Virus record (IMG/VR): IMGVR_UViG_3300039008_000175
Span: 1-64,000 of that record
Length of the DNA stretch: 64,000 bases
Direction: 5' to 3' (one strand)
From: a virus
The notes below the pieces were generated by a model. The model had not been told where the DNA came from. It was given only the letters and a program-made list of their open reading frames with translations, and searched no databases. The position numbers and the translations under genes were made by a program. Of the stretch, positions 9,439 to 63,434 are shown one piece after another. The number at the start of each line of letters is the position of its first letter. The first letter of the stretch is position 1.

Positions 9439-10044
9439 ATGTTTGATGAATTCGATATGGAAGACCTCGATGACGAGCTCGAGCTGGAAGGCCAGGAAGA
9501 ACTCGAAGACCTGGAAGATGATCATGCCGATATGGAAGAGTTCGACGATTGGGATATGGAAGACCAGTCCCTGATGTTCTCTCTGTTCGCCCGTGATCTG
9601 ATTTCCGAAGGTGAGCTGGAAGCCGCCGATCTGGAAGACCTGAGGGAAGACGGCGTTCTGGATGACGACCAGTACCATGCGGTAATGGAAGACACCAGGA
9701 ACATCGTTCGTCTGAATAAGTCCGCCAAGAAGGCTGCCCTGACCGAGAAGGCTATCCTGGTTATGGCCAAGCAGGCCCGGGATCCCGAGTACAAGAAGTA
9801 CCAGAAGTTCCGGAAGCTGATGCTGAAGTCCAGAGCCAAGCTTCAGAAGAAGTACGGTTCCAGAGCCAAGGGTATGGCCATGAAGATGGCTGCCAACGGC
9901 AAGAGACGCCGTCAGAAGAAGGGCACCAAGAAGGTTGCATCTGCCATCCAGACCAACCTGAAGAATCCCACGCTGCGCGGTGGTTCCACCAAGCAGTTCA
10001 CCAAGAAATCCGGCTTCAAACCCAAGGGTGTAAGTCGGGCGTAA
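9439..10044 (+). CDS. bipartite protein: polyacidic N-terminal third, strongly basic C-terminal half (201 aa)
   Basis: TAAGGAG RBS, C-ending codon bias and a strong terminator directly downstream. N-terminus MFDEFDMEDLDDELELEGQEELEDLEDD; C-terminus KRRRQKKGTKK...KKSGFKPKG. Confidence 0.75.
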   Translation: MFDEFDMEDLDDELELEGQEELEDLEDDHADMEEFDDWDMEDQSLMFSLFARDLISEGELEAADLEDLREDGVLDDDQYHAVMEDTRNIVRLNKSAKKAALTEKAILVMAKQARDPEYKKYQKFRKLMLKSRAKLQKKYGSRAKGMAMKMAANGKRRRQKKGTKKVASAIQTNLKNPTLRGGSTKQFTKKSGFKPKGVSRA

Positions 10045-30219: not shown

Positions 30220-32394
30220 ATGGTTGATACAAAAAGTAGCAGCGCCGAGACATTTGTCTCGGTTGCTGATACTCTCAGGAGTGAAGATAGTAAAATAAAG
30301 AAGATAGACCTAGAAGAGTTATCGCCACAGCTTAAACTATGCGTAAGAGGTGGTAATTATATCCACTATAATACAAAGAATAAAGACTTCATAAAGATGC
30401 ATATGATCCTTAAAGCCAAAGGCATTAAGCGAAATGATTTCTTTATTCGAGTATATGATAAGGGTCTTATCGATATAGATCCGTTTGATCCGAATCTCTC
30501 TAGAGAGATGCAGAAGAGAGTAATCAAAGAATGTCAAGTTAACTTCTTCTATTTCATTAGAGAGTGTGTACGATTCCGTGCACCAGGTCGAAGTATTCCT
30601 TGTCAGCTTAACTTGGGTAACTTATCCTTCTACTATTGCAAGCTCATGTGTCTTGATACGGCTATTGAGTTACCTCGTCAGTTTGGAAAGACAGGTGGTG
30701 AGCTCCTCATAAATATATGGGCTTCTTTCTTCTGTCTGGCTAATACTGAGTTGGGCATGTGTAACAAAGCAGAAGGTAACCTTTCTAAAGACCTGAGTGA
30801 CATGAAAGCAATCATCAGAGAGCTTCCCGCGTACCTCAAGGTGTATGACCCTGAGAATGCGAATACTGGTACTAACAACACCAGAGAGATATTTATCAAA
30901 TCCAAGAATGTGAGAATCCGCACATTTGTATCTGGATCATCAGATGCATCTGCGGATGCCAAAGGTCGTGGATTTAGTATCCCGTTCACAACGATGGACG
31001 AGGCACCCTTTATTCCACACTTTAAAGCATTCTACCTAGGCTTCCGTCCTGCCATGAGTAGACAAGTTGAGCTTGCAAAAGCAAACCGTGTAATCTATGG
31101 TTGTACACTGTCGACTACATCTGGAACTCTACTTGATCCAGACCAGGCTTTCTTCAAGCAGAAGATCCTTGATAGTGCTGCTAGATTTATTCCTAACGTA
31201 TTTAACTTTGATACCCGTAGAAAGGTGCTGGAGTATATGGCCAGGAACGCTAGTGGTGTGAAAGAAGGAGAAGATGTGAACGTATATATGTATATACGGT
31301 ACAACTATCGCGAGCTCGGTAAAGGTGAAGAGTACTTCGCTAAGATGTGTAGTGAGCTTCAGCATGACGAAGACAACATCAACAAAGACGTCCTTTTAAG
31401 ATGGGTTGACTATTCTAAGTCATCTCCCTATCGTAGAGACCATATTGAAAGATTGGATAACTACGAGAAGGATCCTCTATACACAATCATGCTTGATGAG
31501 TTTTATCCACTTGATTTCTATACCACTGTGTCTGACTTTGACTTCACATATGTACTTAGCGTGGACGTTTCAGCTGGTAAAGGTGGTGAAGGTGACTCAT
31601 CTGCTATAATGATTCATGACCCCAGAACACTTGAGGTTGTGGCATTGTATAAATCAAATATAATCGATATCCCCCAGCTTACATTCCTTGTGAGAGAGAT
31701 TGCAACCAAGATATTCACAGGATGTGTAGTTGTAATCGAAGTCAACGGGGTAGGTCACGGTATAGTACAGTCACTTGCATATGATGATGCAATCGCCCCC
31801 AGACTCTATCATGAGAAGATGGATACAAAGAAGAATACCCCGAAACAACATAAAGATCTGAGGTCTACGGACTTTGGGTTCTTATCCACCACAAAGGGGG
31901 GTAAAATGCAGATCATGTATAGAGATATCGTCGCCGATGCTATCGCTAATGATTATACATTACTCAGAGACCACACGCTTATTGAGCAGATTGGTGGACT
32001 TGAGAAAGATGTTAAAACAGGGAAGATTAAAGCAGCTGCTGGTAAGCATAAGGACATCGTATCTGCGTTCGTTATTGGACGCTATGCTATACTATTCTCT
32101 CCCACTATTCACAATTGGATTAATCCCAAGCACATCAGATCAGTTGTACTTGATTCAGGTACAATCATTGAGAGTGCTGAGAAGGTACAAGAGAAACTTA
32201 ATGATACAGCTAAGAAGAGTATTCTAAAAGGTCTAAGTGGAAACAATCCCCAAGAACGAACCAAAGTACGGAATAATCTTTTTGCTATACGATCCGAGAC
32301 AAACGATAACAAGTCACGTATTGATATGCGTGGATATATGAAGCGTACCCATAGACAACATGCTTCTAGTGGTATAGGTCATATGTTAAGATAA
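30220..32394 (+). CDS. terL: terminase large subunit
   Basis: Walker A-like ELPRQFGKTGGE and Walker B/catalytic TTMDEAPF. C-terminal nuclease-domain start LSVDVSAGKGGEGDSSAIMIHD. Size is typical of TerL. Confidence 0.85.
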   Translation: MVDTKSSSAETFVSVADTLRSEDSKIKKIDLEELSPQLKLCVRGGNYIHYNTKNKDFIKMHMILKAKGIKRNDFFIRVYDKGLIDIDPFDPNLSREMQKRVIKECQVNFFYFIRECVRFRAPGRSIPCQLNLGNLSFYYCKLMCLDTAIELPRQFGKTGGELLINIWASFFCLANTELGMCNKAEGNLSKDLSDMKAIIRELPAYLKVYDPENANTGTNNTREIFIKSKNVRIRTFVSGSSDASADAKGRGFSIPFTTMDEAPFIPHFKAFYLGFRPAMSRQVELAKANRVIYGCTLSTTSGTLLDPDQAFFKQKILDSAARFIPNVFNFDTRRKVLEYMARNASGVKEGEDVNVYMYIRYNYRELGKGEEYFAKMCSELQHDEDNINKDVLLRWVDYSKSSPYRRDHIERLDNYEKDPLYTIMLDEFYPLDFYTTVSDFDFTYVLSVDVSAGKGGEGDSSAIMIHDPRTLEVVALYKSNIIDIPQLTFLVREIATKIFTGCVVVIEVNGVGHGIVQSLAYDDAIAPRLYHEKMDTKKNTPKQHKDLRSTDFGFLSTTKGGKMQIMYRDIVADAIANDYTLLRDHTLIEQIGGLEKDVKTGKIKAAAGKHKDIVSAFVIGRYAILFSPTIHNWINPKHIRSVVLDSGTIIESAEKVQEKLNDTAKKSILKGLSGNNPQERTKVRNNLFAIRSETNDNKSRIDMRGYMKRTHRQHASSGIGHMLR

Positions 32395-32430: not shown

Positions 32431-32518
32431 ATTCATCTACTATATTTAATTATATATTATTCATGTGCTATATAGTTATTGTAAGTTTGATAATATAAAT
32501 TCAAATAGCATATACTAT

Positions 32519-32611: not shown

Positions 32612-34306
32612 TTGGATTATGGTAAAAACAAAATACCAGATGACGGACCACGTCAGATCAGTCCAATGAATCCGACTCGTCAGGAATATGGAAAAGACCG
32701 TATCCCTGAGTTTGCTGAACATGTCGTTCCGTCTATGATGCCGCCGGGAGTAGCCGATGAAGGTGACCTATATGCCTTCGGTAATGGTGGCTTCAACTTC
32801 GATGATATTGATTTCGATAACATCGATGATCTGTATGAAGATGGAATCATTGAGGATAGTAATACGGTGCAGCGTGAGCTGGCGTATCAGAATATGGAAT
32901 CTGCCTTGAACTCCTATAAGGCAAGAGAGGTTCATAATCTCAACATCGATACGATGGCTAAGTTGACTGAACAGATTGTCAAGATACTGGCTATGCACGG
33001 TGTTCCATATGGTGAAGCTGAAGAAGAGATCACGACACTGATGACTGATCTGTATACAGCTTATATCCTCGAGTCGAGTCACGTAGGTCCTGAATCGAAT
33101 ATGGGCCAGGTCGGTGTATCTTTTCTGACACAGATGCTGGAGACATCGACATATTGTGACAACCCTCTTGGTCAGTTGTTGGCTAATAACTACAAGCTGA
33201 GAGTTGATCTCATGAACATGTATAGTGGTGAGATCAGGCAGAAAGCAAATCGCTTGACGCTTGAACTACCCGACAAGTTCAGAATCAGTGTGGCTAATAC
33301 AAAAGTTGGTCAGGTCATCAATGATTATGATTTGGATCATCTTATTCCCGGAGCAGTTCGGAATAACAATATCAACCTTCTTGTAGGTGAGTCGCCTGCA
33401 AACGATCCTACACTTGGAGCCAAGATCAGGAGCCAGGTACTAGGAACGTACTTCGGAGTATCCTCTAGTGGGATGCCTACATTCGGAAGGAATGGAAGTA
33501 TGGTTGACTCGTTCTTTCAGAGACTGTTAAGTCCTGAAACATCTGCAATAAACAGAAATCTCTCAGACGTGGCAAGTATGATCACGCAAGGAGTAGCGAT
33601 GAGTAGACATCAGAATAATGGTGGATTCTTACCACCCGTTCCACAGCGTGGAATGAACCCTGGTAATCCCCAGGGTGGACAGTTGCCTATGGTTGGGCAG
33701 CAGCAAATGCCTATGAATGCGCCCAGGCCTGGACGAGACTTTCATAGTGTCGTTGGAGCTGGTGGAGTATACATGGAAGAGGCATCTTTTGACATCTCCA
33801 AAGAAGGAGTGCAGGTCCATTACAATCATATGGGCATGACTCCTGACGGACGGGTTACTGGTGGCGCCATGAAGTTTGGTGCAGGTCAGCAGGCCGTAGC
33901 TGGAGCTCAGCAGATGCTTGGTATGCAGGGGCAGCCGATGCTTCCGCCTCAGGGTGGAGAACAGCGGCATACCCGTGCTTTAACAGTCGATGAAATCCGC
34001 GAACGTAACAGTGGATTCTACGACGATGAGGACGACCGGGCTAACTCTGGAATTGTTTTCGAGACATCCGAGTTTGATACCCAGTCTAATAAATTTGAAG
34101 CCTTCGATGATGAGGATGACCTGTGGGTAGGAACGCCCTTGGATGAACCGGAGAAGGATAAAGTATCTGAAAGGGCCTCAGCTGAGCCTAAGATCAGCGT
34201 ATCTAACGAGAAGGAAGCGATCGAACCGACTCGTGGCGAAGAGAAAGGAAAAATCAACAAGAACGATAGTGATATCGTAGATGCTGATTTCTCTGTCGTC
34301 GAATAA
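32612..34306 (+). CDS. hypothetical protein with Q/G/P/M low-complexity segments and acidic C-terminus (564 aa)
   Basis: TTG start 7 nt after GGAGG. Segments QNNGGFLPPVPQRGMNPGNPQGGQLPMVGQQQMPMNAPRPG and GAGQQAVAGAQQMLGMQGQPMLPPQGGEQ. Confidence 0.65.
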   Translation: MDYGKNKIPDDGPRQISPMNPTRQEYGKDRIPEFAEHVVPSMMPPGVADEGDLYAFGNGGFNFDDIDFDNIDDLYEDGIIEDSNTVQRELAYQNMESALNSYKAREVHNLNIDTMAKLTEQIVKILAMHGVPYGEAEEEITTLMTDLYTAYILESSHVGPESNMGQVGVSFLTQMLETSTYCDNPLGQLLANNYKLRVDLMNMYSGEIRQKANRLTLELPDKFRISVANTKVGQVINDYDLDHLIPGAVRNNNINLLVGESPANDPTLGAKIRSQVLGTYFGVSSSGMPTFGRNGSMVDSFFQRLLSPETSAINRNLSDVASMITQGVAMSRHQNNGGFLPPVPQRGMNPGNPQGGQLPMVGQQQMPMNAPRPGRDFHSVVGAGGVYMEEASFDISKEGVQVHYNHMGMTPDGRVTGGAMKFGAGQQAVAGAQQMLGMQGQPMLPPQGGEQRHTRALTVDEIRERNSGFYDDEDDRANSGIVFETSEFDTQSNKFEAFDDEDDLWVGTPLDEPEKDKVSERASAEPKISVSNEKEAIEPTRGEEKGKINKNDSDIVDADFSVVE

Positions 34307-34359: not shown

Positions 34360-35772
34360 ATGAATTCATTGAACGCAACCCTATCATCCAACGCCTCCGT
34401 AGCCGTAGTCGGTCTGGGAGGAATGCCCGGAAAAGTAAGTGCTCATCTCATCAACGAAAAAGCCGATGACCTGATCACCCCCATCGTAGCCCTGACCTAT
34501 GCATTCGACGTCGCCAAAGACGCCACCATCCTCCGCAGAGACGGAAGCACCGGTCCCTTCAATCCCAAGGACCAGAATCCCTCCCATTACGTGGGAGACA
34601 TCCTCACCACTCCCGGTATCATGGAGCTGGTAAAAGGCCGTGTGCAGGAGCACATGAAGATGATCGGAACTGAAGTCGCTCCCGACCTGGTGGCGGTTAT
34701 CCCCACTGCGAAGCTGACCTACTTCGATTCCGAGGGTAAGAAGAGAGGTATCACTACCTGTCCCGACATCCACTTCATCTCCAGAAACCCCATCGTGGAT
34801 ACCTACCTCCAGATCAACGATCGCGGAGTCCCCGGTATTCCCATGGATCCCAACGCCATCTTCGGCAACTGTCAGCAGATCGCCCAGGCCATGCCCAGCA
34901 TCCTGAGCAAGAACATCTCCGGTAAGTCCTTCTTCCGGGCCCTGATGCACTTCTATGGTGCGAACACCGCAGAGTTCGTGACCCGCTGTCACAACAACCT
35001 CTTCGATATGTTCGAAGCCATCGGTGCCATCAACGAGCTGGTTGCCCACGAAGATTCCGGATTCTCTACTCTTCGGAGTAAGGTCATCCGGGATGAATCA
35101 GGTAACCTGAAGCGGAAGGCCGGTACCACCAAGGTGCCCCGGTTCTTCCTGCATGAGCTCATGCGTCCCACCGACATGAGAGTCGTGAATATCATGGAAC
35201 GTGATCAGGGTCTGAGAACCATGGTCACCAACAATGAGATTCCCCACGGCATGGGTAAGACCACCTTCTCCACTCCCTTCCCCGATGACGATGTCATGGA
35301 CGTGATGGGCGGATACTCCACCACTGCTCTGGTCGGTAACGACTGGAGAGAGGAGAGAGTCGCTCACCTCGAACTGCATCAGGTTCAGCAGCAGGCCGCT
35401 GCCGCTGCCGCATACGGTGCCGGTAGTAGAGCTCGCGGTGCTTCCGCAGCTGCCGGAAGACGTGGAAGACGTGGCGCCGCCGCTCAGCAGGAGCAGCCCG
35501 TAGCAACCGCCCCCAGAGGTGCTGTACAGCAGCAGGCAGCAGCTCCCGCTCCCACCGCTATGAGAGGCGCTCCCCAGCAGGGACAGCAGGCCGCTCCCGC
35601 CGGTGGTGGTAGAAGAGGAAGGGGTCGCCGTAACGCTCCCCAGCAGCAGCAGGCCAACGTACGTGGCGCCGCTGTACCCGCAGTCGTAGATGTGATCGAG
35701 TTCGAGTCCGTCGGACAGGTCTCCTACGTCAGCTATCCCCGTCTGGGTAGAACCGCTCCCCGTGTAGACTGA
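34360..35772 (+). CDS. abundant-looking protein with RGG/Q/A-rich C-terminal tail (470 aa)
   Basis: C-ending codon bias, CAGGAG RBS and a strong terminator. Tail reads QQQAAAAAAYGAGSRARGASAAAGRRGRRGAAAQQEQ...GGGRRGRGRRNAPQQQQANVRG. Confidence 0.7.
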   Translation: MNSLNATLSSNASVAVVGLGGMPGKVSAHLINEKADDLITPIVALTYAFDVAKDATILRRDGSTGPFNPKDQNPSHYVGDILTTPGIMELVKGRVQEHMKMIGTEVAPDLVAVIPTAKLTYFDSEGKKRGITTCPDIHFISRNPIVDTYLQINDRGVPGIPMDPNAIFGNCQQIAQAMPSILSKNISGKSFFRALMHFYGANTAEFVTRCHNNLFDMFEAIGAINELVAHEDSGFSTLRSKVIRDESGNLKRKAGTTKVPRFFLHELMRPTDMRVVNIMERDQGLRTMVTNNEIPHGMGKTTFSTPFPDDDVMDVMGGYSTTALVGNDWREERVAHLELHQVQQQAAAAAAYGAGSRARGASAAAGRRGRRGAAAQQEQPVATAPRGAVQQQAAAPAPTAMRGAPQQGQQAAPAGGGRRGRGRRNAPQQQQANVRGAAVPAVVDVIEFESVGQVSYVSYPRLGRTAPRVD

Positions 35773-39246: not shown

Positions 39247-40197
39247 TTAGTCTTTGTTCTTTTCATCGCGCTCTTTCTTTGCGGAATGAGCGGCCAGTTT
39301 GGCAACGGCGGACTTGATGTTCCGTCTTCTCTGCATGATCAGACCGGCGCCCTTTCTGGTGTACTCAAGAGCCTTATTCAGGTTCTTCTTGAGGGTTCCC
39401 AGGCCGCTGCGAGCAGCGTCGTCGAAGTTGGAGGTCTTCATCTTCTGAACGGTCTTTTCCATCTTCTTCAGCTCGTCGTTGGCGGTGGTCAGGAACTTGC
39501 GGTCGGCTCTGGCTTCTACGAACAGTTCGTGAAGCTTGTTCTCGTTCAGATCGGAGAGTCTGACCTTGACGGTCTTGTTGATCTTTCCGCCCTTCAGGAA
39601 GAGCTTGGCCAGCTGATCATCAACCTTGCCACCTTCGGTGCTGGTATCGCCAGCTACGCTACCCTTCTTGTCCTTGTCGCCTTCAGCCTTATCAAAGGCA
39701 TCGACGGCGGCCTGGAACTTGTCGGTATAGGCTTTCATCTCGCCTTCCAGCTTGGAACCGCTGGAAGCGTCCCAGTTCCAGGACAGCATTTCCATGGTAT
39801 CCTTACAGGAGGAGGCGTGTTCGAAAGCCTTGGAGGCTCTCTTGTCCCACCAGGAGGAGTCGGCTTTGGTGAACTGCTTGTCCAGAGCGTCCCGGATCCA
39901 GGCCATGATGGACTTGATCTTGGCGGACACAGCGTCGGCCCACTTATTGATGGTGTCCATGAATGCACCTTCCATATCGGCTTCACTGGGGTCTGCAGCC
40001 CAGCCTTCCAGGTCACTGAAGTAGTTTTCCTTGTCCTTCACCGCTTCCATAGCGGTGCACATGAAGCGTACCTCTTCCCAGGCTTCACGGCATACATCTT
40101 CACATTCGGAGATGATGCCTTCAACAGCGTAGGCGTTCATACCGCCAACGTTGTAGTCGCTCGTAAGGTCCTTACGAATATCACTAACACTAATCAT
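39247..40197 (-). CDS. paralog family member 1 (316 aa), candidate internal head / ejected protein
   Basis: AAGGAG RBS and C-ending codon bias. N-terminal ...SDLEGWAADPSEADMEGAF then helical KIKSIMAWIRDALDK, alignable to members 2-5. K-rich C-terminus. Confidence 0.75.
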   Translation of the reverse strand: MISVSDIRKDLTSDYNVGGMNAYAVEGIISECEDVCREAWEEVRFMCTAMEAVKDKENYFSDLEGWAADPSEADMEGAFMDTINKWADAVSAKIKSIMAWIRDALDKQFTKADSSWWDKRASKAFEHASSCKDTMEMLSWNWDASSGSKLEGEMKAYTDKFQAAVDAFDKAEGDKDKKGSVAGDTSTEGGKVDDQLAKLFLKGGKINKTVKVRLSDLNENKLHELFVEARADRKFLTTANDELKKMEKTVQKMKTSNFDDAARSGLGTLKKNLNKALEYTRKGAGLIMQRRRNIKSAVAKLAAHSAKKERDEKNKD

Positions 40198-41408: not shown

Positions 41409-42371
41409 TTAGTCCTTCTTCTTATCTTCTCTTTCCTGCTTCTTCACCTCGGTAATGATCTTACCGAAGATACCCTTCAGGGAAGAACGGCGCTCTTTAC
41501 AGAGAGCCAGAGCGGTGCGGTTCAGGTTGATGGACAGGTTTACTGACTTCTTAATCTGACCCAGACCGGTCTTATAGATCTTGGCTTTGGCGTCTCCGCC
41601 TTCACTCTTTCTGTCGAAGGAAGCGGAGGACTTATCCAGAGTCTTCTTCAGCTTCTGGAGAGCAGCGATGGCCTTATTCAGCTCATCTTTCTCCTTGCGG
41701 CCGTCTCTCCAGATCTCAATGTACTTGAGATTGGCGAAGGTCTTCAGGGGATACTCTTTGTCCTTCTCGGTGTAGAAGTACTTCTTGATGACTTCCAGCT
41801 CGCCTTTCTTGTCATCAACGTTACCCATCAGAGAACGGGTTGCGCCGCCAGTGTCACTGGAGCTTCCACTTTCCAGACCGCTGATGACCTTATCCAGATC
41901 GTCGACGATCTTGTCGGTAGTCTCGGCGGCACCGATCTTGGTGTTGGTGGTCCACATCTTGGTCTTGACTTTGACCTTGTCAGCCAGTTTGGCACCGTCC
42001 AGGATGGTGGCTTCGTTCTTCTTCAGGAAGCTGTCATCCATCTTATCCAGAACCTTGTTGATGTACTCGTTGATCTTGGCGATGATCTTATCGATCACGG
42101 CCTTAACCTTGGCAATTGCGGCGCTGGCACCGTCTTTGACGCTGGACATGATACCTTCCATTTCCATGGAGTTGGCGTTTTCCATATCGACATCAGCGGT
42201 GACGGCCACTGCGACGCACATTGCTTCGAGGTCGGCGAAGTCATCACTGATCTCGTCCAGAGATGCTTCCAGGTCTGTATTGAACAGAGTGGGAATCAGA
42301 GTAGCGGAGGAAGTACCTTCAGCACCACCCATACCCATACGGGATGCAAGAGCACTGGGAATATTATGCAT
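41409..42371 (-). CDS. paralog family member 3 (320 aa)
   Basis: TAAGGAG RBS. ...SDDFADLEAMCVAV...NSMEMEGIMSSVKDGASAAIAKVKAVIDKIIAKINEYINKVLDK. C-terminus KKQEREDKKKD. Terminator downstream. Confidence 0.75.
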   Translation of the reverse strand: MHNIPSALASRMGMGGAEGTSSATLIPTLFNTDLEASLDEISDDFADLEAMCVAVAVTADVDMENANSMEMEGIMSSVKDGASAAIAKVKAVIDKIIAKINEYINKVLDKMDDSFLKKNEATILDGAKLADKVKVKTKMWTTNTKIGAAETTDKIVDDLDKVISGLESGSSSDTGGATRSLMGNVDDKKGELEVIKKYFYTEKDKEYPLKTFANLKYIEIWRDGRKEKDELNKAIAALQKLKKTLDKSSASFDRKSEGGDAKAKIYKTGLGQIKKSVNLSINLNRTALALCKERRSSLKGIFGKIITEVKKQEREDKKKD

Positions 42372-52333: not shown

Positions 52334-53533
52334 ATGAGAAAACCAAGACCGGTTACACCGGAGGAACATGAATATCTGATGAGTCTTACTGTGGATGACT
52401 ACGGAGTTAAGCTATTGGCATCGTTGTTTGCAACGACGAATAAGAAGCCCGCTAAGTTCATCCCTAAGGATACGATGACTCTACCTGCTGGTAAGATAAA
52501 TAATAAAACAACTGTGAAGACAACTGTTGGTCGGTATATCCACAACATGGGGCTTCTGTATAAAGTATTTGGTAATACAATTGAGTATACCAACTATGCC
52601 TGGGATAATAAGGGCTATGGTAAGCTTGAAGGTGAACTTGAGACTCTTCTTATGGAAGACAAGATCACTGGCCGTCAGATCGCGCAGTTCATCAATGAAT
52701 GGCGAGTCTGTACATCTGCTGCTGAGTTCATGAATCCTTCTGCAAACGTTGATGTAATGGCAACCTCTCCTGAAGTTGATGCGTATAAGAAGAAACTATT
52801 CAAACAGTACGACGATGAACTCAACAACGGCAATATCGAAGTAATGAACAAAGTAGATAAGTTAATCACCGCTAAGGTTATCGAAGTCTACAGTAAGAAC
52901 CCTGCATTCTCTCTTTATGAGACAGGTGGTAAGCCTAAGGCATCTGAGCAGTTGAAGCAGGGCATTGCATGCATTGGATACGTTCGTGTTGACGGTAAGG
53001 ATATTTACATCAGAGAATGCTTTGCTGATGGTGTAAGTATCGAAGGAAATATCCTTGAAGGTAAGAAAGCAACAGATGGTGTTGTAGACCGTAACAAATC
53101 AACTCAGGATGGTGGATACCAGACTAAGTTGGTAATCGGTGCTCTTACTACTTACACTGTCGACAGGAATCCGAAGTCTGACTGTAAGTCAACTACCTAC
53201 TATAAAGTTAAACTCACCAAAGACAACAAGAAAGACTGGCTCTATACATTCGTTAGGACCAGTAAGAGTAATCATAACCTTGTTGAGCTTACATCTGAGA
53301 ATATAGATAACTTTTTGGATAAAGATATTGAGGTCCGGGCGCCTCTCTTCTGTAAGTCTAAGACGATCTGTTCTAAATGTATTGGAACACGTCCTTATAG
53401 AATGGAGATATACGATATTGGTCTTATTTATCCATCAAATACATCAGGACTCTTACAGAAAGCTTTGAAAGCTATGCACTCTACAAAAGTAGACCTTGTG
53501 AAGCTTGATTTCTATGGAGCGTTTAAATTGTAA
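52334..53533 (+). CDS. multisubunit RNA polymerase beta-prime-like middle fragment (second copy of the bridge-helix/zinc region)
   Basis: TTVGRYIHN (cf. beta-prime TTVGR). ETGGKPKASEQLKQGIACIGYV and DGVVDRNKSTQDGGYQTKLV are bridge-helix-like. Zinc motif RAPLFCKSKTICSKCIG. It ends at LLQKALKAMHSTK..., which resembles the start of the trigger loop. Confidence 0.7.
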   Translation: MRKPRPVTPEEHEYLMSLTVDDYGVKLLASLFATTNKKPAKFIPKDTMTLPAGKINNKTTVKTTVGRYIHNMGLLYKVFGNTIEYTNYAWDNKGYGKLEGELETLLMEDKITGRQIAQFINEWRVCTSAAEFMNPSANVDVMATSPEVDAYKKKLFKQYDDELNNGNIEVMNKVDKLITAKVIEVYSKNPAFSLYETGGKPKASEQLKQGIACIGYVRVDGKDIYIRECFADGVSIEGNILEGKKATDGVVDRNKSTQDGGYQTKLVIGALTTYTVDRNPKSDCKSTTYYKVKLTKDNKKDWLYTFVRTSKSNHNLVELTSENIDNFLDKDIEVRAPLFCKSKTICSKCIGTRPYRMEIYDIGLIYPSNTSGLLQKALKAMHSTKVDLVKLDFYGAFKL

Positions 53534-56822: not shown

Positions 56823-56842
56823 TATATATTAATAACGTGAAT
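56823..56842 (+). promoter_or_regulatory. class-1 promoter-like motif TATATATTAATA-ac-GTGAAT
   Basis: Upstream of the gene starting at 56859. It shares TGTTATAC upstream and GTGAATAG downstream with the 5558 copy. Confidence 0.5.
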
Positions 56843-56858: not shown

Positions 56859-58511
56859 ATGCAATCATACAATTCTAGAAAGGTCTCGACCATGCACCAG
56901 ATTATCAAAGGCCAGTGGGGATTCTATCCTTACGACAATGCTAATTTTGGTATGCAGGTTAACGGTAAAAGACTTGGCTTCAATGAAGATGTCAATACCA
57001 GAGACGAACTCAACAGACCCGTACAGTTCACCGTGAAATGTCTTAACTGTAACAAATCGTTCAGTGAGACTTTCGAGGGACTGAAATCTTCACGGGAACA
57101 ATCTGGTGTCTACTGTCCGCATTGCTACGGAACGTACGATCCCAGTCGCCTTATCAAGTTGATGTCTCCCACGCCGGTGAGGCCGCTTGAGGAAACCATT
57201 CTCAAGAAGAGAATGAATGATCATAACTATGATCTTGTTGCGGTTAGCCAGAACAAAGGCAACGGCACAGATGGTCTTATTACTGTAGCATGTAAGGCAT
57301 GTGGTGGTAAGATCATAGGTCATTACAATATGATCGAACAGCAGGAAGAGTGCCCTCACTGCAAGATTCTCAAAGAGGATCCTGACATGAACGGCAATCC
57401 CCCTGCATTTGTTGCATATGCGAGAATCCTTGAACGCTGCGGCTTCAAGAATCGTGTACGCTTCAAATACACCAAGGCTCAGATTGAGACGTTCAAGTCT
57501 CTTCATGCGCCTGCTGAGCACATGTGCCGTCATACGGCAGGTCATACGGTGCTGGTTAGCCCCATTGACATCATCAACTCTCTGGCTGAGAGATTTGACG
57601 GATTTGCATTCGATGATCGTGAGATCTATGTCGGATGTACATGTGAGAAGCCCGCATCCAAGAACCTCATCAATACTCTCAGTAAAGAAGAGATTATTAG
57701 CGATGCAGTAGTCGACGTGGTGGACGAGGATAATCCCGAAGAGTTCGCAGATGATCTGGACGTCATCTACGAGGATAAACTCCCCGAGACTACAGAAGAA
57801 GAACCCATGGGAGAACCCGTGGAAACTTCTGACCCGGAACCTGAAGTAGCTGAAACTGTAGAAACAGAGGAGGTAACGGAAGATGATGACTCACGAGATG
57901 AGACCGGAGGTGACACCGGTATCGATGCTGATAGCTCAGAACGGGTGGACGCACCGATCGAAGAGGAAGGGGAGGACGAAGCAAGGTCCATCCTTGATAT
58001 CGAAGATGATGATGAAGATTTCGATTCTGATGAAGAATCAGAAGATCTATCAGACCTCGTCGACGATCTCGACTCCGAAGAAGAAGAGAATGAGGATGAC
58101 GAATCCTCTGATCTTGACGTTCCTGATTCTGACGATGAAGTACGGGACGAAACTGAAACTGTCGACGATGAGCTTCCGGTTGAAGAACTGGATGAACTCG
58201 GAGGAGACAATCCCTCTGACATCGAGCCTGATGCCAGAGAACAAAGCGTTAGCGATTCTGATCTCGTATCAGATGATGATGGATCCGACGACGATGGATG
58301 GGATTGGGACGAGTGTGTTGACACAGTTGCCGACCCTGTCGATGTTGTTAATGAGCCTGAGAGCTCTGAAGAAGGACAGGTTCAGGATGAGCCTGTAGAC
58401 GACGATTCGTTTGTCGATGAATCCACTATCAACGAGACTCCTCCTACCGAGGACAAGGCAGCGGCTGAAGAAGAAATCATTGAAGATGATGATTTCGATT
58501 TCCCCTGCTGA
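56859..58511 (+). CDS. zinc-ribbon protein with ~265-aa polyacidic C-terminal tail
   Basis: ORF track gives 56850. The ATG at 56859 follows AGGAGG. CxxC pairs CLNCNKSF...CPHCYG and CKACGGK...CPHCK. The tail from DEDNPEEFADD to the end is dominated by D/E/S. Confidence 0.7.
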   Translation: MQSYNSRKVSTMHQIIKGQWGFYPYDNANFGMQVNGKRLGFNEDVNTRDELNRPVQFTVKCLNCNKSFSETFEGLKSSREQSGVYCPHCYGTYDPSRLIKLMSPTPVRPLEETILKKRMNDHNYDLVAVSQNKGNGTDGLITVACKACGGKIIGHYNMIEQQEECPHCKILKEDPDMNGNPPAFVAYARILERCGFKNRVRFKYTKAQIETFKSLHAPAEHMCRHTAGHTVLVSPIDIINSLAERFDGFAFDDREIYVGCTCEKPASKNLINTLSKEEIISDAVVDVVDEDNPEEFADDLDVIYEDKLPETTEEEPMGEPVETSDPEPEVAETVETEEVTEDDDSRDETGGDTGIDADSSERVDAPIEEEGEDEARSILDIEDDDEDFDSDEESEDLSDLVDDLDSEEEENEDDESSDLDVPDSDDEVRDETETVDDELPVEELDELGGDNPSDIEPDAREQSVSDSDLVSDDDGSDDDGWDWDECVDTVADPVDVVNEPESSEEGQVQDEPVDDDSFVDESTINETPPTEDKAAAEEEIIEDDDFDFPC

Positions 58512-58549: not shown

Positions 58550-58569
58550 TATATATTATTATCGTGACA
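58550..58569 (+). promoter_or_regulatory. class-1 promoter-like motif TATATATTATTA-tc-GTGACA
   Basis: About 150 nt upstream of the gene at 58709, implying a long leader. Confidence 0.4.
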
Positions 58570-58602
58570 AGTAATAAAATATTATTACTGGGTCGAATAC
58601 TA

Positions 58603-58630
58603 TATGTTATATGTTATATGTTATTATGTG
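58603..58630 (+). repeat. heptamer tandem repeat (TATGTTA x3 plus one degenerate unit) in the 5' leader
   Basis: tatgtta tatgtta tatgtta ttatgtg. Preceded by the hairpin gtaataa-aata-ttattac at 58571-58588. Confidence 0.7.
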
Positions 58631-58708
58631 CGTATCTCTTTAATAAAGCTTGGGGTAAGCTAACACGAGAGAACAAGAAAATTCACGACAAAGAAATAGG
58701 AGTAATTA

Positions 58709-60436
58709 ATGTACAACAATTACGCACAGAACGGAATGAACGGCGGCTACAACAACGGGGGAATGAACTATGCTCCTCAGGGTGGAATGATGGGTGGAAA
58801 CAATCCCTATCAGCCCGGTATGCAGCAGGGTAATCCCGGCATGATGCAGGGCGGTGCCTATATGCAGCAGCAGCCCATGGCTCCCGCAGTCAGAACATTC
58901 CGCGAGCTGGATGAAGAGATTCGTCTGGCATATTCCGATATCAGCGCTATCGTTGACAAAGTCAGCAAGCAGTATGATATCCCCATGAGAGTGGAACTGG
59001 ATCCTCTCTGTGGCCTGCACTATGTGCTGGTGGAAACCGAAGGTAACGACAGGCTGACCATCCCCGCTGAGTTCGCTATGAGACAGCAGATGGCTCCCGC
59101 CAACGATCCCGACTTCTTCTATGAGGCCAGGATCTATCTCGTGACCAAAGACATCTACTCGAAGACCATCCAGACCGGCGTCAACGCCATCTCCATCTTC
59201 GACCAGATCATCCGCGAACGGCAGGGCCGGGCAATGTTCATCACGCCCGGTATGATGGCCGGAAGCAACACCGCACTCGCTATCTCTCTGATCAGAGCCC
59301 TGAAGGTTCTGTATCCCGATCTTTTCGAATACTTCAACGTGATGGATATTCCCCATTACGTCGTCAACGCCAGCTACGGCGGTGAAGGCGGAGTAGAGGC
59401 AAACGGAGATGAAATCCGTGCCGACTTCGAAGCATTCGCAGAATCCAACTACGTCGGTATGGACATCGCTCCCGTTGCCGACCGCGTCTTCCTCCTGAGA
59501 GGAAACGTAAACGGTCAGAACAATGGCTGGTATCAGCAGGGAGGTGTTAACACCGAAGAGACCCTGGCCGCCATGACTATCTCCGTGAAGAGCGAGGACA
59601 TCGAACAGGCTGGCCGGACCATTCCCAAGTACGACATCATCGTGACGTCCTACATGGAGTGTATCTCCGCCAACTTCCCCGATGCCTTCGAGATTCTCCT
59701 CCTGGAGATGACCAGAACCATGGCCGCTGAAGGAGCTATTATCGGTACCATTCACGTTGCCGTTAACTCCTGTATCCCCCATGAGTCACAGTTCATGTAT
59801 GACCCCACCTACCTCCTGAACAACGGTATGGGCGGTCAGGCACCCTGTGCTCTGGATGCTCGTTTCACCTACAACAACAACGAGTATTACTACATCCCCT
59901 CCCTGGATCAGGCATTCTCCGTCGACAGCCTTCTCGGTAAGGACACCCTCAAGGTGATCTTCACCAGCAAGAAGGACAAAGCCGACATCGAGAACCTCGC
60001 TTCCAAAGCCGATCTGGATGCCTTCCTGGTAGCCAGAAAGTGTCGGAAGTTCCAGGGACCCCCCAGTGTCGTGGCAGCGGTTAACCCCGCCTTCATCGGC
60101 ATGGCTCTCAACATTCAGATCGCTGGCGGACAGATGGGAATGAATCCCTACGCCATGGGTCAGAATACCATCGGTTACGGCCAGCCCCAGATGGGAGGCT
60201 ACGGTGGCCAGCAGCCCATGGGCGGTGCATATGGCGGGCAGCAGCCCGGCTACGGAGCACAGCCCCAGATGGGTTATGGTCAGCAGCAGCAGCCCATGAT
60301 GGGACAGGCTCAGCCCATGGGTGGTCAGTATATGCAGCAGCCCGGTATGGGCGGAAGCTACTACAACAACGGTCAGCAGATGGCCGGTGGTGCTTACGCT
60401 ATGCCCGGTCAGCAGCCCATGCAGTACCAGTATTAA
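58709..60436 (+). CDS. abundant-looking protein with prion-like Q/G/M/P/Y/N tails at both ends (575 aa); nuclear-shell (chimallin) candidate by position only
   Basis: C-ending codon bias, TAGGAG RBS and a strong terminator. N-tail ~58 aa MYNNYAQNGMNGGYNNGGMNYAPQGG...; C-tail ~105 aa ...GGYGGQQPMGGAYGGQQPGYGAQPQMGYGQQQQP...QPMQYQY. Immediately upstream of the beta-prime N fragment. Confidence 0.7.
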   Translation: MYNNYAQNGMNGGYNNGGMNYAPQGGMMGGNNPYQPGMQQGNPGMMQGGAYMQQQPMAPAVRTFRELDEEIRLAYSDISAIVDKVSKQYDIPMRVELDPLCGLHYVLVETEGNDRLTIPAEFAMRQQMAPANDPDFFYEARIYLVTKDIYSKTIQTGVNAISIFDQIIRERQGRAMFITPGMMAGSNTALAISLIRALKVLYPDLFEYFNVMDIPHYVVNASYGGEGGVEANGDEIRADFEAFAESNYVGMDIAPVADRVFLLRGNVNGQNNGWYQQGGVNTEETLAAMTISVKSEDIEQAGRTIPKYDIIVTSYMECISANFPDAFEILLLEMTRTMAAEGAIIGTIHVAVNSCIPHESQFMYDPTYLLNNGMGGQAPCALDARFTYNNNEYYYIPSLDQAFSVDSLLGKDTLKVIFTSKKDKADIENLASKADLDAFLVARKCRKFQGPPSVVAAVNPAFIGMALNIQIAGGQMGMNPYAMGQNTIGYGQPQMGGYGGQQPMGGAYGGQQPGYGAQPQMGYGQQQQPMMGQAQPMGGQYMQQPGMGGSYYNNGQQMAGGAYAMPGQQPMQYQY

Positions 60437-60505
60437 ATCTTACGGGCCCGCCGCGATGCTTGTCGGTGGGTTCGTGAGTAGGGGCATTGCCTCTTCAAGT
60501 TTAGT

Positions 60506-60540
60506 CGCCCGGAGTTAATTCTCCGGGCGGTTTTTATTTT
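60506..60540 (+). terminator. intrinsic terminator
   Basis: cgcccggag-ttaatt-ctccgggcg followed by GTTTTTATTTT. Confidence 0.85.
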
Positions 60541-60560
60541 TCCCAAAAGGACGGTCACTA

Positions 60561-62141
60561 GTGTCAAAAGCACCAAACAAGATCCATCCCGGTCAAGTTG
60601 ATCGGCTTAACCGCAAGACTGTAGTAATTGACCATGAGAATTGGGATCACCTGTTTGCATTGGAAAAGAATCCAATCATCATTGATAACATTAAGCCTCT
60701 GGAGAAGAAGAGTAAGACTGAAGTGGTCAGAACTCGTGGTGGTATCCTATCGCCCAGCTTCGGAGTAGATATCAAGGAGAATGAAGACTCCTCGACTGTC
60801 TATAAATGTGAATGTGGTGAGCTGGGTACCATTGCAAACGACGGGGTGATATGTGAGACTTGTGGTAAACCTGTTCGCTTAGGCGACGGGCTTATTACAA
60901 CTCGTGGTTGGATACAGGTAGCTGGTCCGAACAAGATTCTCACACCCAATGCTTGGGCTATGTGTAAAGACTTCTTCAAGCGTCACTTCTTGAAGATAAT
61001 CGATCTTGATATGAGTACTCATGTTAATATCGATGGTGAGTTTATTCCACCTGAAGTCACACCTGCCAACAAGTATTATGGTATTGGTTATTGGGCGTTG
61101 CATGAGAACTTCAAAGAGATCCTGGAGTTCTATTTCAACTTCATCTACTGTAAGAAAGGATCACCCAGAGAGCAGGATGTAACAACCTACAATCTCCTGC
61201 GCTATTTCTATGATAGTGGAAAGCTGTATGCCAGTAACATCAGTGTGATAACTCCTCTGCTTAGAGAGGCGGTGATCATTCCCAGTAACAGAGAGCCCAG
61301 TCTGAAATACGATAAGAAGTCCAAGACTTATATCATTGAAGATCAGAAGCCGACTCTGAAGCTGGAAGCTCTAAATGGTGTATATGCTAAATTGGTTGCA
61401 AATGTAAATGAGTATAACAAGCTCCTGAATGAAGGACCTGCGTTTGCTTATGATGTGTTTGCAAGTGTCCAAACTACCCTTACTGAGATCCCTGCCTACA
61501 TCTTTAAGGATGGAGTGGTTGGGGGTAAAGAAGGGTATATTAACTCAGCCATCCATGGTGGTATGATGAACTTCACAGGCCGTGCAGTAATCGTACCTAT
61601 GGATAGACCTCATGAATGTGATGAGGTTGAATTGCCCTGGAGAGTCTTCCTCAGATTGATGAAGTATGAACTCGTCAGAGCAATCAGTCTTATTACAGGT
61701 GAAGATATTCTCGGTTCTCAGAGTATATGGGAAGAAGCTTATGAAACCGGCAGTACGGATATTCTCGAACAGGCCATCTCGAAGGTCAAAAGTGAAAGTC
61801 ACGATGGAGAACTATACTGTCTGATTAACCGACCCCCAACTCTTTTAATCGGATCTATCCTTTTCATGAGGATAACATCAATCAATCGTTCATTGGACGA
61901 GAAGTGTATGAGAGTTTCTCATATGGTTCTCGGTATCATGAACGGGGATCATGATGGTGACTCGCTCATCATTATGCAACCGAAAACCGCCTCACAACTT
62001 GAAGCCTTCAAGAAGATCTCTCCCAAGAGATTGATTGTGGATAAAGTTACTGGCAGGTTCAACTCATCGTACGCCCCAGCGGGGCCATTACAGGCACTGA
62101 TCGGTCTCTATTCCGATCCTGACTCTGTATCACATCTTTAA
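60561..62141 (+). CDS. multisubunit RNA polymerase beta-prime-like N-terminal half (catalytic DxDGD)
   Basis: Zinc finger YKCECGELG-x9-CETCG. INRPPTLLIGS (cf. NRAPTLHR). IMNGDHDGDSLII (cf. NADFDGD). GTG start. Confidence 0.85.
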   Translation: MSKAPNKIHPGQVDRLNRKTVVIDHENWDHLFALEKNPIIIDNIKPLEKKSKTEVVRTRGGILSPSFGVDIKENEDSSTVYKCECGELGTIANDGVICETCGKPVRLGDGLITTRGWIQVAGPNKILTPNAWAMCKDFFKRHFLKIIDLDMSTHVNIDGEFIPPEVTPANKYYGIGYWALHENFKEILEFYFNFIYCKKGSPREQDVTTYNLLRYFYDSGKLYASNISVITPLLREAVIIPSNREPSLKYDKKSKTYIIEDQKPTLKLEALNGVYAKLVANVNEYNKLLNEGPAFAYDVFASVQTTLTEIPAYIFKDGVVGGKEGYINSAIHGGMMNFTGRAVIVPMDRPHECDEVELPWRVFLRLMKYELVRAISLITGEDILGSQSIWEEAYETGSTDILEQAISKVKSESHDGELYCLINRPPTLLIGSILFMRITSINRSLDEKCMRVSHMVLGIMNGDHDGDSLIIMQPKTASQLEAFKKISPKRLIVDKVTGRFNSSYAPAGPLQALIGLYSDPDSVSHL

Positions 62142-62177: not shown

Positions 62178-63434
62178 ATGAAACGTATCAATACCTTGAA
62201 ATTCGCTACCGGTCTCACCCTGGAATCCAAAGGATTCGGATGCCCCAACTTTATCGAAGCCCTCGGCGGGGAAGAAAACATCCTGGAGATGGACGCCGCC
62301 GGTCTGTATCCCAAAGTTCACAGCCTTGATCTGGTCAAGAAGAAGATGCTGAAGAAAGCCAACATCACAATCACCAAGTCCAAGGGAGTCGCCACGCTGG
62401 CCTTCGGAGATGACCCCGGTTTCGGGTTCACCCTTCCCTTCACCAAGATCTACAACGGATATTCGGTAAGAGCTCTCTCCACCGGAGCATCTGCTACCCT
62501 CAAGGGTACCACCTCTGTATGTGAGCTGGAAATGATCGGATTCAGCCCCATGGGCCTTCCCTTGGTGAACATCCGCTGGTGGCACATCGGCCGGGATCAG
62601 AAAGGTAAGATCCAGACAAGAGTGAGAGTTGACAGAAACGTTCCCCTGAGCAACGGCGCGGAAGCAATCGACGTTATCCGCAGCGCCTCCAGGGTTGAAG
62701 GTGAAGGATTCTGGGTACTTCCCGTTCATGGCGTTGAGATCGCCAAGGGCCGGAAGAAGAGAAGCGCAAAGCGTTGGGACGTGGTCGCGGCATGTAAAGA
62801 TCCCGCAGCTTTCGAGAGATTCTATCCCGACAGCGTAGACGGTATCATGAGCCTGCTGCCCATCCTCCAGAGAAAGGTAGATCAGCTTCTGGATAAGGTC
62901 TGGAAGATGGACAAGTCCTCCAACGCTATCCTGGTTCGGTTACAGACTCAGAGTTTCAAGACTCGCTGGGCGGATGATGTTCCTCCCATGTACAATGATA
63001 AAGGAATGACCATCTTCCCCCTCGGAGATGAAACAGTCCCCGTTGAAGACCTGACTCCCACAACCGCCGCCGTGGACGAAGCTCCCTTTGAGGGAGAAGA
63101 AGGAAACGCAACCATCGGAGAGATGGTAGGCGAAGAAGGATTCGAAGGCGACATCGTTGAAGATGCTGGCGTCCCGGATGAGATGGAGCACATGGAAGAG
63201 GAAGAGCGTGATGCCGAACTCGACCTGGAAGTAGGCCCCGAAGAAGAAGAAGGAGAAGCGGATGCTGAAACCGTTGAAGAAGAAGTACCCACTGCGGATC
63301 CCGCTGCGGTATCTACTGTCGACCTGGAAGAGCACATCGCGGAAGCCCAGGAAGCCGACGGAAACGCCGAAGCTGGAACGGAAGACGTGTGCCCTGCTCT
63401 GGACGAAATCGCAGCGATCGGAAACGAAGCGTAA
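62178..63434 (+). CDS. hypothetical protein with acidic C-terminal third (418 aa)
   Basis: GGAGG RBS and C-ending codon bias. C-terminal ~130 aa rich in E/D/A/G. Confidence 0.7.
   Translation: MKRINTLKFATGLTLESKGFGCPNFIEALGGEENILEMDAAGLYPKVHSLDLVKKKMLKKANITITKSKGVATLAFGDDPGFGFTLPFTKIYNGYSVRALSTGASATLKGTTSVCELEMIGFSPMGLPLVNIRWWHIGRDQKGKIQTRVRVDRNVPLSNGAEAIDVIRSASRVEGEGFWVLPVHGVEIAKGRKKRSAKRWDVVAACKDPAAFERFYPDSVDGIMSLLPILQRKVDQLLDKVWKMDKSSNAILVRLQTQSFKTRWADDVPPMYNDKGMTIFPLGDETVPVEDLTPTTAAVDEAPFEGEEGNATIGEMVGEEGFEGDIVEDAGVPDEMEHMEEEERDAELDLEVGPEEEEGEADAETVEEEVPTADPAAVSTVDLEEHIAEAQEADGNAEAGTEDVCPALDEIAAIGNEA

Follow-up and report, generated by a model that had tools for sequence, protein, structure and literature searches.

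Can a phage carry a chimallin-type shell protein that sequence searches do not recognise? This question is raised by a gene at positions 58709..60436 (+) of a 64,000-nucleotide stretch of DNA from an uncultured giant phage (positions 1 to 64,000 of IMG/VR virus record IMGVR_UViG_3300039008_000175; hereafter, the window). The gene encodes a protein, P0001, that has a low-complexity tail at each end, and it lies directly upstream of the gene for the N-terminal fragment of an RNA polymerase (RNAP) beta-prime subunit (beta-prime-N). Chimallin is treated as the sequence-detectable defining marker of one family, the Chimalliviridae, and jumbo phages without a recognisable chimallin are presumed not to form a protein nucleus (PMC13282480; Prichard 2023). 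A June 2026 review still confines chimallin to the Chimalliviridae (PMC13282480), and in the literature that we searched there was no report of chimallin-like proteins outside this family, nor of shell proteins with low-complexity tails. Here, we find that P0001 is probably a member of the structural lineage of chimallin (ChmA/PhuN) and its counterpart in gene position. With less assurance, we favor the reading that P0001 is a highly divergent shell protein of chimallin type that sequence comparison fails to recognise, from a jumbo-phage clade with multisubunit RNAPs (msRNAPs) not described before, and that its docking tails appear to have been elaborated into low-complexity domains. This reading follows from the combination of the same fold, the same locus, the same expression logic, and tails at both ends.

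The open reading frame (ORF) begins with ATG and encodes 575 aa. It consists of an N-terminal tail of 58 aa (aa 1-58; 58709..58882), a globular core of 412 aa (aa 59-470; 58883..60118), and a C-terminal tail of 105 aa (aa 471-575; 60119..60436 with the stop codon), which matches the preliminary description of this DNA, where a core of ~410 aa was placed between Q/G/M/P/Y/N tails of ~58 and ~105 aa. The N-tail starts with a conserved MYN and is 24% G, 17% M, 17% N, 16% Q, 10% Y, 9% P, and 7% A; the C-tail ends in ...QPMQYQY and is 27% G, 24% Q, 13% M, 11% Y, 10% P, and 8% A. In 20-aa windows, the combined fraction of Q/G/M/P/Y/N was 0.85-0.95 in the tails and 0.05-0.65 (mostly <0.45) in the core. 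Tails defined by alignment are slightly wider (59 + 112 = 171 aa), and none of these 171 residues is D, E, K, or R, for which the chance is ~6e-19 given that 21.8% of the core is charged. Tyrosines are spaced on average 8-10 residues apart, and the C-tail contains GYG four times and QQP five times. The label "prion-like" that we use for these tails refers to composition alone. An origin by recent repeat expansion was ruled out because the coding region of 58709-60436 contains no DNA tandem repeats.

An exhaustive HMMER scan of 1.84 billion representative proteins revealed three homologs, P0002 (557 aa), P0003 (529 aa), and P0004 (552 aa), with cores 33-37% identical to that of P0001. Each of them carries both an N-tail (43-55 aa) and a C-tail (83-102 aa), with 34-52% Q+N and 0-3 charged residues per tail. 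For P0002 (L006 5186-6859), the annotated start is probably 21 codons too far upstream, leaving the conserved MYN internal, and its N-tail was counted from MYN. The MYN start is invariant in all four family proteins, and the final Y is found in three of the four. The retention of tail character at this level of core divergence, together with the lack of tandem repeats, indicates that the tails are no repeat artefact. The sticker residue differs by ortholog: P0001 and P0002 use Y, P0003 uses M (23-28%), and P0004 uses F (in GFG, PGFG, and PFG). The uncharged Q/N/G/P spacer, by contrast, is constant over all four. This pattern argues for selection on tail composition rather than tail sequence. 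Across all eight family tails, Q+N ranges from 28 to 52%, charged residues from 0 to 3, and entropy from 2.5 to 3.1 bits; aromatic residues are spaced 6-10 residues apart in six of the eight, and the tails of P0003 have Met in place of spaced aromatics. Thus, the family tails are low-complexity domains in the sense of being Q/N-rich, charge-poor, and low in entropy, with spaced aromatic stickers.

Beyond these homologs, the family is isolated. Pfam, PHROGs, and NCBIfam have no family for P0001, and tblastn searches of 50,697 GenBank phage records returned nothing meaningful, whether the query was the full protein, its core, or the family consensus. Megablast of the 8-kb neighbourhood gave no match, and pattern scans of IMG/VR and JGI metagenomes gave none for the tailed protein. 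When 5.8 billion proteins were searched through a word index, first with P0001 alone and then with a profile, only P0001 itself (on a 255-kb contig) and P0004 were recovered. There is no paralog of the family, and no canonical chimallin, in the window or the homolog loci (the best ORF reached E = 0.45 with a hidden Markov model (HMM) of seven chimallins). The most extensive survey so far covered 16 million viral genomes after a chimallin-HMM pre-filter at E <= 1e-5 (Sun 2025); the tailed family would not pass this pre-filter, so that survey could not have seen it.

Structure comparison gave a different result from sequence comparison. We modelled the core with AlphaFold2 from the four-sequence core alignment (mean predicted local distance difference test score (pLDDT) 67.7, predicted TM-score (pTM) 0.68). 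A Foldseek search of the PDB with this model returned eight matches at E <= 1e-3, and all eight are chimallin/PhuN structures: Goslar 7sqv, 7squ, and 7sqt; 201phi2-1 7sqs, 7sqr, 7sqq, and 8igg; and phiPA3 8fne (E 2.2e-7 to 9.3e-5, probability 1.00, query TM-score (TMq) 0.42-0.48). The comparison with chimallin structures that the preliminary description had proposed as a check thus came out in favor of the predicted kinship. The next tier consists of GNAT acetyltransferases headed by the toxins KacT and AtaT (TMq ~0.2), and below it lies 2hv2, an E. faecalis protein of unknown function. These lower-tier matches coincide with the published structural neighbours of chimallin, whose C-domain is closest to AtaT and whose N-domain resembles only an uncharacterised E. 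faecalis protein (Laughlin 2022). In BFVD, the model matched the shell proteins of Noxifer and Eowyn as well as uncharacterised 620-690-aa proteins of Ralstonia phages RP12 and RSF1 and Aeromonas phage D3, which we take to be their shell proteins. As a negative control we kept a single-sequence AlphaFold2 model that was unusable (pLDDT 32); it had no PDB match better than E = 0.37 and none to chimallin, indicating that the predicted fold, rather than residue composition, accounts for the chimallin match. The alphafold2_ptm weights are older than the 2022 chimallin structures, so the fold was not memorised. We therefore assign to the core, with moderate confidence, a predicted two-domain fold of chimallin type, with a nuclease-like alpha/beta N-domain (approximately aa 59-225) and a GNAT-like C-domain. 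At the end of the core, an invariant F-x-G-P leads into a hydrophobic beta segment (aa 448-470); this segment is packed in cis in the monomer model and may be the counterpart of the chimallin C-terminal segment CTS1.

The position of the gene points in the same direction. The downstream gene (60561..62141, +) encodes a beta-prime-N of non-virion type (phrog_2987, 8.6e-51; Pfam RNA_pol_Rpb1_2), and its best tblastn matches are phiR1-37 g274, AR9 gp269 (annotated as a non-virion RNAP subunit), and 201phi2-1 gp107, a homolog of phiKZ gp55. We compared this arrangement with seven chimalliviruses from different genera. An annotated nuclear-shell gene lies directly upstream of beta-prime-N, in the same orientation, in phiKZ (gp54 then gp55), Eowyn, FLC9, SA002, Xoo-sp14, and pEa_SNUABM_54, and one small gene separates the two in 201phi2-1. 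Both the adjacency in the window and the gp54-gp55 adjacency given in the preliminary description therefore hold, the latter in phiKZ and, apart from the small intervening gene in 201phi2-1, in six further chimalliviruses. The tailed gene likewise directly precedes beta-prime-N on the same strand in each of the four clade lineages (the window and loci L006-L010), which answers the earlier question of whether the synteny exists in related genomes. Every homolog contig has the same order, namely a large reverse-strand gene, an acidic-tailed zinc-ribbon gene, the tailed protein, beta-prime-N, and a gene for 340-455 aa. A strong GC-rich hairpin separates the shell-type gene from beta-prime-N in the window and in L006, L007, and L010, and also in phiKZ, Eowyn, SA002, Xoo-sp14, pEa54, and FLC9. 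No such gene precedes beta-prime-N in phiR1-37 or AR9. Within the clade, the tailed protein is less conserved than beta-prime-N (33-37% versus 47-57% identity) and thus evolves faster. In L009 (5901-7271), beta-prime-N was called as two pieces (87 + 348 aa), a split that might reflect a frameshift, an insertion, or faulty assembly; in L007 and L008, which have an identical shell-like protein, it is one 528-aa gene.

Chimallin is among the first and most abundant phage proteins (PMC13282480), and the signals around 58709-60436 match this trait indirectly, through an early-type promoter box, the codon class, a Shine-Dalgarno sequence, and a terminator of its own. The box, TATATATTA-ttatc-GTGA-caagt, is at 58550..58572 (+), 159 nt before the ATG, close to the ~150-nt leader reported earlier for an early-looking promoter. 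The motif TATATATTA-WTA-N3-4-TGA occurs ten times in the window (5558, 10129, 15267, 18642, 32451, 32519, 56823, and 58550 on the plus strand; 4548 and 48183 on the minus strand), and all ten copies are aimed at a downstream gene, 43-160 nt before its start. Motif-led genes of recognisable function belong to DNA/RNA metabolism (an RNAP beta fragment and an SbcC-like gene), the zinc-ribbon gene and the tailed-protein gene are also motif-led, and none of the high-GC3 structural-looking genes in the window is (GC3, G+C at third codon positions). The same box is present upstream of every homolog (L006, L007/L009, and L010), followed by GTGA-N0-3-ACAAGT in three of the four loci. The box core agrees with the annotated AR9 early promoters AAATATATATTAT and ATAATATATATTT, which suggests that virion-RNAP promoter specificity is conserved across very distant msRNAP phages.

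The remaining signals are consistent with strong expression. GC3 of the tailed-protein gene is 0.70, the maximum in the window, and this bias is gene-wide (core 0.704, tails 0.67-0.71). Its codons fit the high-bias class of the window (CCC for 32 of 34 Pro, CAG for 49 of 49 Gln, AAC for 31 of 37 Asn), and 58709-60436 is the only gene in the window that combines this codon set with an early-type promoter, having the top codon-class score among the genes led by that promoter. An antisense ORF of 358 aa (58706..59782, -) wholly within the gene is a by-product of GC3-rich codon usage and was rejected as a gene. Downstream, an intrinsic terminator (60503..60542, +) with a 12-bp stem, eight GC pairs, and a T-run lies between the tailed-protein gene and beta-prime-N; the biased codons and strong terminator of the preliminary description are thus borne out. 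No promoter motif was found in 60437-60560, ahead of beta-prime-N, and with no box of its own this gene probably depends on transcripts that read through the terminator. Right after the stop codon and upstream of the true terminator, a long GC-rich hairpin that lacks a T-run (60439-60478) may be an mRNA 3'-end stabiliser or a second attenuation element. The 5' leader (58573..58708, +; ~140-160 nt) contains (TATATGT)x4 at 58601-58629 and a Shine-Dalgarno AGGAG at 58698-58702 that ends 6 nt ahead of the ATG. Leaders of the homolog loci are 100-226 nt long and keep only a promoter-proximal element and an A-rich stretch before the Shine-Dalgarno sequence; the TATATGT repeat is not kept. We ruled out a structured or regulatory leader RNA because the leader has no Rfam match, no conserved structure, and no excess folding relative to shuffled sequence (z = -0.22).

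The tails also have a precedent in chimallin. In canonical chimallin, an N-terminal segment (NTS, 48-61) and two C-terminal segments (CTS1, 590-611; CTS2, 622-631) dock on neighbouring protomers, and their deletion abolishes assembly (Laughlin 2022). In seven canonical chimallins that we measured, the tails are 50-124 aa long, have a Q/G/M/P/Y/N fraction of 0.22-0.56, and are mostly 2-24% charged (34-40% in Xoo-sp14); the last residue is aromatic in five of the seven (e.g., ...PSSFY and ...PGTWY). The tails of the new family exceed 0.9 Q/G/M/P/Y/N, are almost charge-free, and are 1-2 times the canonical length (~2 times for the C-tail). Because canonical tails already show a milder version of this composition, the new tails look like an exaggerated chimallin family trait and not something wholly foreign. 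No sequence equivalents of NTS, CTS1, or CTS2 could be aligned in the new family. Taken as a whole, the family resembles the known chimallins (phiKZ gp54, 201phi2-1 gp105, Goslar gp189, and phiPA3 gp53; PDB 7SQQ-7SQV, 8FNE, and 8IGG) in its predicted two-domain fold, charge-poor extensions at both ends with an aromatic last residue, a locus directly upstream of the non-virion beta-prime-N with a strong terminator between, an early-type promoter, signs of very high expression, and faster evolution than the adjoining RNAP gene. It differs from them in lacking detectable sequence similarity, in its shorter core, in the absence of a gp52-like flank, in a large terminase (TerL) nearer to AR9/PBS1/S6, and in tails that are almost pure Q/N/G/M/P/Y(F) where canonical tails are mixed S/T/A/Q/G with defined docking peptides. 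P0001 is thus outside the chimallin family by sequence and inside it by predicted fold, by position, and, indirectly, by expression.

Based on these data, we propose the following model. The gene would be transcribed right after infection from an early promoter of virion-RNAP type as a very abundant message, and the strong terminator would let only a fraction of transcripts pass into the beta-prime-N gene. The two-domain core (nuclease-like plus GNAT-like) is probably catalytically dead and would self-assemble into a lattice or compartment around replicating phage DNA. The short docking segments of canonical chimallin would have become charge-free Q/N/G/P spacers of 45-60 aa and 85-110 aa with Y, F, or M stickers. 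Protomers would probably be linked through cohesive, multivalent contacts between these low-complexity tails, with a possible contribution from a retained dock at the terminal tyrosine, and the tails may coat or fill the shell as a gel-like layer. Our confidence is not the same for all parts of this model: that P0001 builds a nucleus-like shell is somewhat better supported than its negation, and any specific mechanism for the tails is doubtful.

Several observations weigh against a chimallin-type shell protein. By sequence, PHROG 4795 ("nuclear shell protein") matched none of P0001-P0004 (phiKZ gp54 scores 1e-230 and Eowyn 1.5e-87), the HMM of seven diverse shell proteins gave E = 1 for P0001, hhalign of the family alignment against seven chimallins gave a probability of 0.1-0.3%, and the family profile found nothing at E <= 10 among PDB sequences. 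The core model, built from four sequences with pLDDT 67.7, is of moderate confidence; it superposes on chimallin with TM 0.42-0.48 and a root-mean-square deviation of ~10 A, and at ~404 aa it is ~110 aa shorter than the canonical core of ~520 aa. The best BFVD matches were not chimallins but proteins annotated "endonuclease-like" or "homing endonuclease" (E 4.6e-9 to 1.9e-7). One of these, the 399-aa CP21_071 (I7KLM9) of a Campylobacter phage without msRNAP, is encoded amid split tail-sheath gene fragments (L018 43264-44463, -) and resembles a mobile element of sporadic occurrence. Since proteins other than shell proteins share the two-domain fold, the fold does not by itself imply a shell, and the functional assignment must rest on context too. 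No gp52-like chimallivirus gene was found at the locus with an HMM and BLAST of flanking genes, which rules out extended synteny with chimalliviruses beyond beta-prime-N, the only gene common to the chimallivirus block and the new-clade block. Early timing is argued from analogy with the AR9 promoters, and high abundance from codon bias.

The affinities of the phage count on the same side. TerL (30220..32394) is nearest to that of Bacillus phage BpSp (Takahashivirus, PBS1/AR9 group; 31%), followed by AR9-like (28%) and Staphylococcus S6-like (27%) phages; identity to chimalliviruses is 23-25%, and the nearest groups are regarded as chimallin-less. PBS1, PALS_2, and phiR1-37 are given as examples of msRNAP phages without chimallin (Prichard 2023). 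No PhuZ or other nucleus-specific gene was seen in the window, which covers about a quarter of the 255-kb genome. The Chimalliviridae are delimited as a monophyletic group with ~68-72 core genes in conserved blocks and two msRNAPs, and the window (64 of ~255 kb) contains msRNAP fragments and several phiKZ-type PHROGs.

If P0001 has the chimallin fold but does not enclose DNA in a shell, it could be the scaffold of an open, condensate-type replication/transcription factory, in which the tails phase-separate and the core adds valency or recruits RNAP or DNA. The tails are about twice the canonical length and far more extreme in composition (>0.9 Q/G/M/P/Y/N against 0.3-0.55), and their pattern of Y, F, or M in uncharged Q/N/G/P is the sticker-and-spacer grammar of phase-separating prion-like domains such as those of FUS, hnRNPA1, and Sup35. 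The nearest lineages of the phage are thought not to build a nucleus, and adjoining conserved genes have hyper-acidic tails, both of which would suit such a factory. We nevertheless consider it unlikely, because the position is conserved, the fold matches a lattice-forming protein, and the family seems to have kept docking elements in its conserved terminal aromatic and its F-x-G-P beta segment. A more radical possibility is that the model is partly wrong and the fold match misleading, in which case P0001 would be an unrelated abundant early factor, for instance a DNA- or RNA-binding or single-stranded DNA-binding (SSB)-like protein with disordered tails. The alignment of four sequences, pLDDT <50 for 89 of the 404 residues, and the lack of sequence support for chimallin allow for this, and there is a precedent in E. 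coli SSB, which has a Q/G/P-rich disordered linker. However, pTM is 0.68, the strong PDB matches are exclusively chimallin with weaker ones to its published neighbours, the junk-model control was clean, and the independent positional evidence agrees. Moreover, neither an OB-fold nor an SSB turned up for P0001 in Pfam, PHROGs, NCBIfam, PDB sequences, or Foldseek, and its C-terminus (...QPMQYQY) lacks an acidic tip. A misleading fold is therefore quite improbable, and the unrelated condensate or SSB-like factor that the preliminary description had kept as an equal alternative is disfavored.

The codon bias could instead mark P0001 as a late virion structural protein (fibre, decoration, or internal), since the high-GC3 class is shared with structural-looking genes at 9439..10044, 25508, 34360, and 39247, and phmmer gave a weak match to "tail fiber protein" 9rpt_C (E = 0.03). 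This match, like a single-sequence match of the same query region to a Dhillonvirus hypothetical protein (E 4-7), was gone with the family profile and was dismissed as noise. The gene carries the early-type promoter, which precedes none of the high-GC3 structural-looking genes of the window, the fold is unlike that of a fibre or capsid protein, and the gene sits in an RNAP/replication neighbourhood, which makes a virion role highly improbable. The BFVD annotations raise one further option, in which P0001 would combine nuclease and GNAT domains as a working enzyme or a mobile element, for example as an acetyltransferase toxin or as a homing endonuclease of the CP21 "Hef" kind. The Hef-type "endonuclease-like" proteins (BFVD A0A8S5LPH4 and CP21_071) resemble the model in fold and size (TMq 0.38-0.46, ~400-560 aa), but CP21_071, which has no Pfam domain, shows no hhalign similarity or other sequence kinship to the P0001 family and does not adjoin an RNAP gene. 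The GNAT tRNA-acetylating toxins AtaT, KacT, and TacT match only ~150 residues, in the C-terminal half of the modelled core (E 1.7e-3 to 5e-2), and P0001 differs from them in having a second domain and tails and in lacking an antitoxin partner. It has no Pfam nuclease or GNAT signature, and by our reading of the alignment the N-domain strand (VLVETEGN / VEVDGVKE / IKVESNGA / VEVDSKGE) has no conserved D...(D/E)xK lysine. A fixed syntenic position in four lineages at 33-37% identity, its own promoter and terminator, and maximal codon adaptation are the opposite of a sporadic, weakly expressed mobile gene, and we regard this option as very improbable.

With a chimallin-type shell protein as the preferred reading, the tails invite comparison with other low-complexity systems. 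Uncharged Q/N/G/P sequence with stickers is a composition associated with phase separation and amyloid formation. The tails share uncharged Q/N/G/P-rich sequence, regularly spaced tyrosines, and GYG and QQP motifs with FUS-type domains and the Sup35 N-domain (PQGGYQQYN repeats). They differ from FUS in being far richer in Met (13-28%) and much poorer in Ser, with a sticker that varies between Y, M, and F, and from both in flanking the two ends of a folded, probably lattice-forming core in a phage; the likeness is compositional. The GLFG nucleoporins (Nup100/116/49/57) likewise combine uncharged Q/N-rich spacers with hydrophobic or aromatic stickers, here on a protein predicted to border a nucleus-like compartment. 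P0004 has four FG dipeptides (in GFG, PGFG, MGFG, and PFG contexts) and three further GF (in LGF and QGF) in its C-tail. FG dipeptides are absent from P0001, P0002, and P0003, so multiple FG repeats are not a family trait; P0001 uses Y and M instead, and the resemblance is partial and compositional. An unlikely extension is that the ~160 tail residues per protomer form a hydrogel-like phase that lines or plugs a chimallin-fold shell, as a bacterial-virus analogue of the FG-nucleoporin permeability barrier. If so, entry and exit would be set by partitioning into the low-complexity phase, instead of or besides dedicated import proteins; the chimallin shell would be older than the recognised Chimalliviridae, and relatives of "nucleus-less" msRNAP phages such as AR9/PBS1 may have had, or have, compartments of this kind.

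Other genes of the window provide a setting for these proteins. The msRNAP fragments at 10188-12203 (phrog_3015), 52334-53533 (phrog_2962), and 60561-62141 (phrog_2987) are scattered over 50 kb, a split-subunit organisation typical of phiKZ- and AR9-type phages. The gene upstream of the tailed protein (56859-58511, +) encodes an N-terminal domain of ~280 aa with CxxC zinc ribbons, after which comes a hyper-acidic tail (60 aa with 62% D/E). Its matches to a PHROG ("HNH endonuclease") and to an NCBIfam zinc ribbon are weak, it has its own early-type promoter at 56823, and the zinc-ribbon domain and acidic tail are kept in L006, L007, and L010. The JGI start for this gene is 57162, and the ATG at 56859, which follows AGGAGG, looks better. 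The gene after beta-prime-N (62178-63434, +; GC3 0.60) has a weak Pfam SSB_1 match (E = 0.23, aa 112-179) and an acidic C-tail (48% D/E), is weakly conserved in L006, and may encode a phage SSB. A 564-aa protein with no family match (32612-34306, +), preceded by two tandem early-type promoters at 32451 and 32519, has internal Q/G/M/P-rich stretches (aa 335-375 and ~440-470) akin to the tails of P0001 and an acidic C-terminus, and could be a partner of the low-complexity tails. Genes 25508-27529 (+), 34360-35772 (+), 39247-40197 (-), and 41409-42371 (-) have the same high-GC3 codon set as the tailed-protein gene without an early promoter. Neither Pfam nor PHROGs gave a match for the first three, and the fourth has marginal PHROG tail-protein matches (E = 0.002-0.006); all four presumably encode major virion proteins too divergent to recognise. 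A further high-GC3 gene, 9439..10044, matches a virion-protein PHROG.

If P0001 does have a chimallin fold, then its occurrence at the chimallin locus in a clade with a terminase closer to AR9/PBS1/S6 would mean that this shell architecture arose earlier than the recognised family and extends beyond it, and the new clade would provide an outgroup for the evolution of the shell from a nuclease-GNAT ancestor. The unnamed BFVD entries G4KKB0 (561 aa), A0A915VHB2 (538 aa), and A0A3Q9R5T0 (534 aa), together with several "endonuclease-like" Myoviridae proteins, matched the model as well as true chimallins did; should any of these entries come from cultured "nucleus-less" msRNAP phages, proteins with the chimallin fold may have gone unrecognised there. 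The tails represent a rare case in a bacterial virus of a conserved, bilateral prion-like domain (by composition) on a putatively abundant structural protein. They would amount to a natural experiment in which the peptide ties of a lattice were replaced by prion-like domains, which could relate tail chemistry to lattice cohesion, flexibility, and permeability. Together, these data suggest a different way to build or gate a compartment of the phage-nucleus type.

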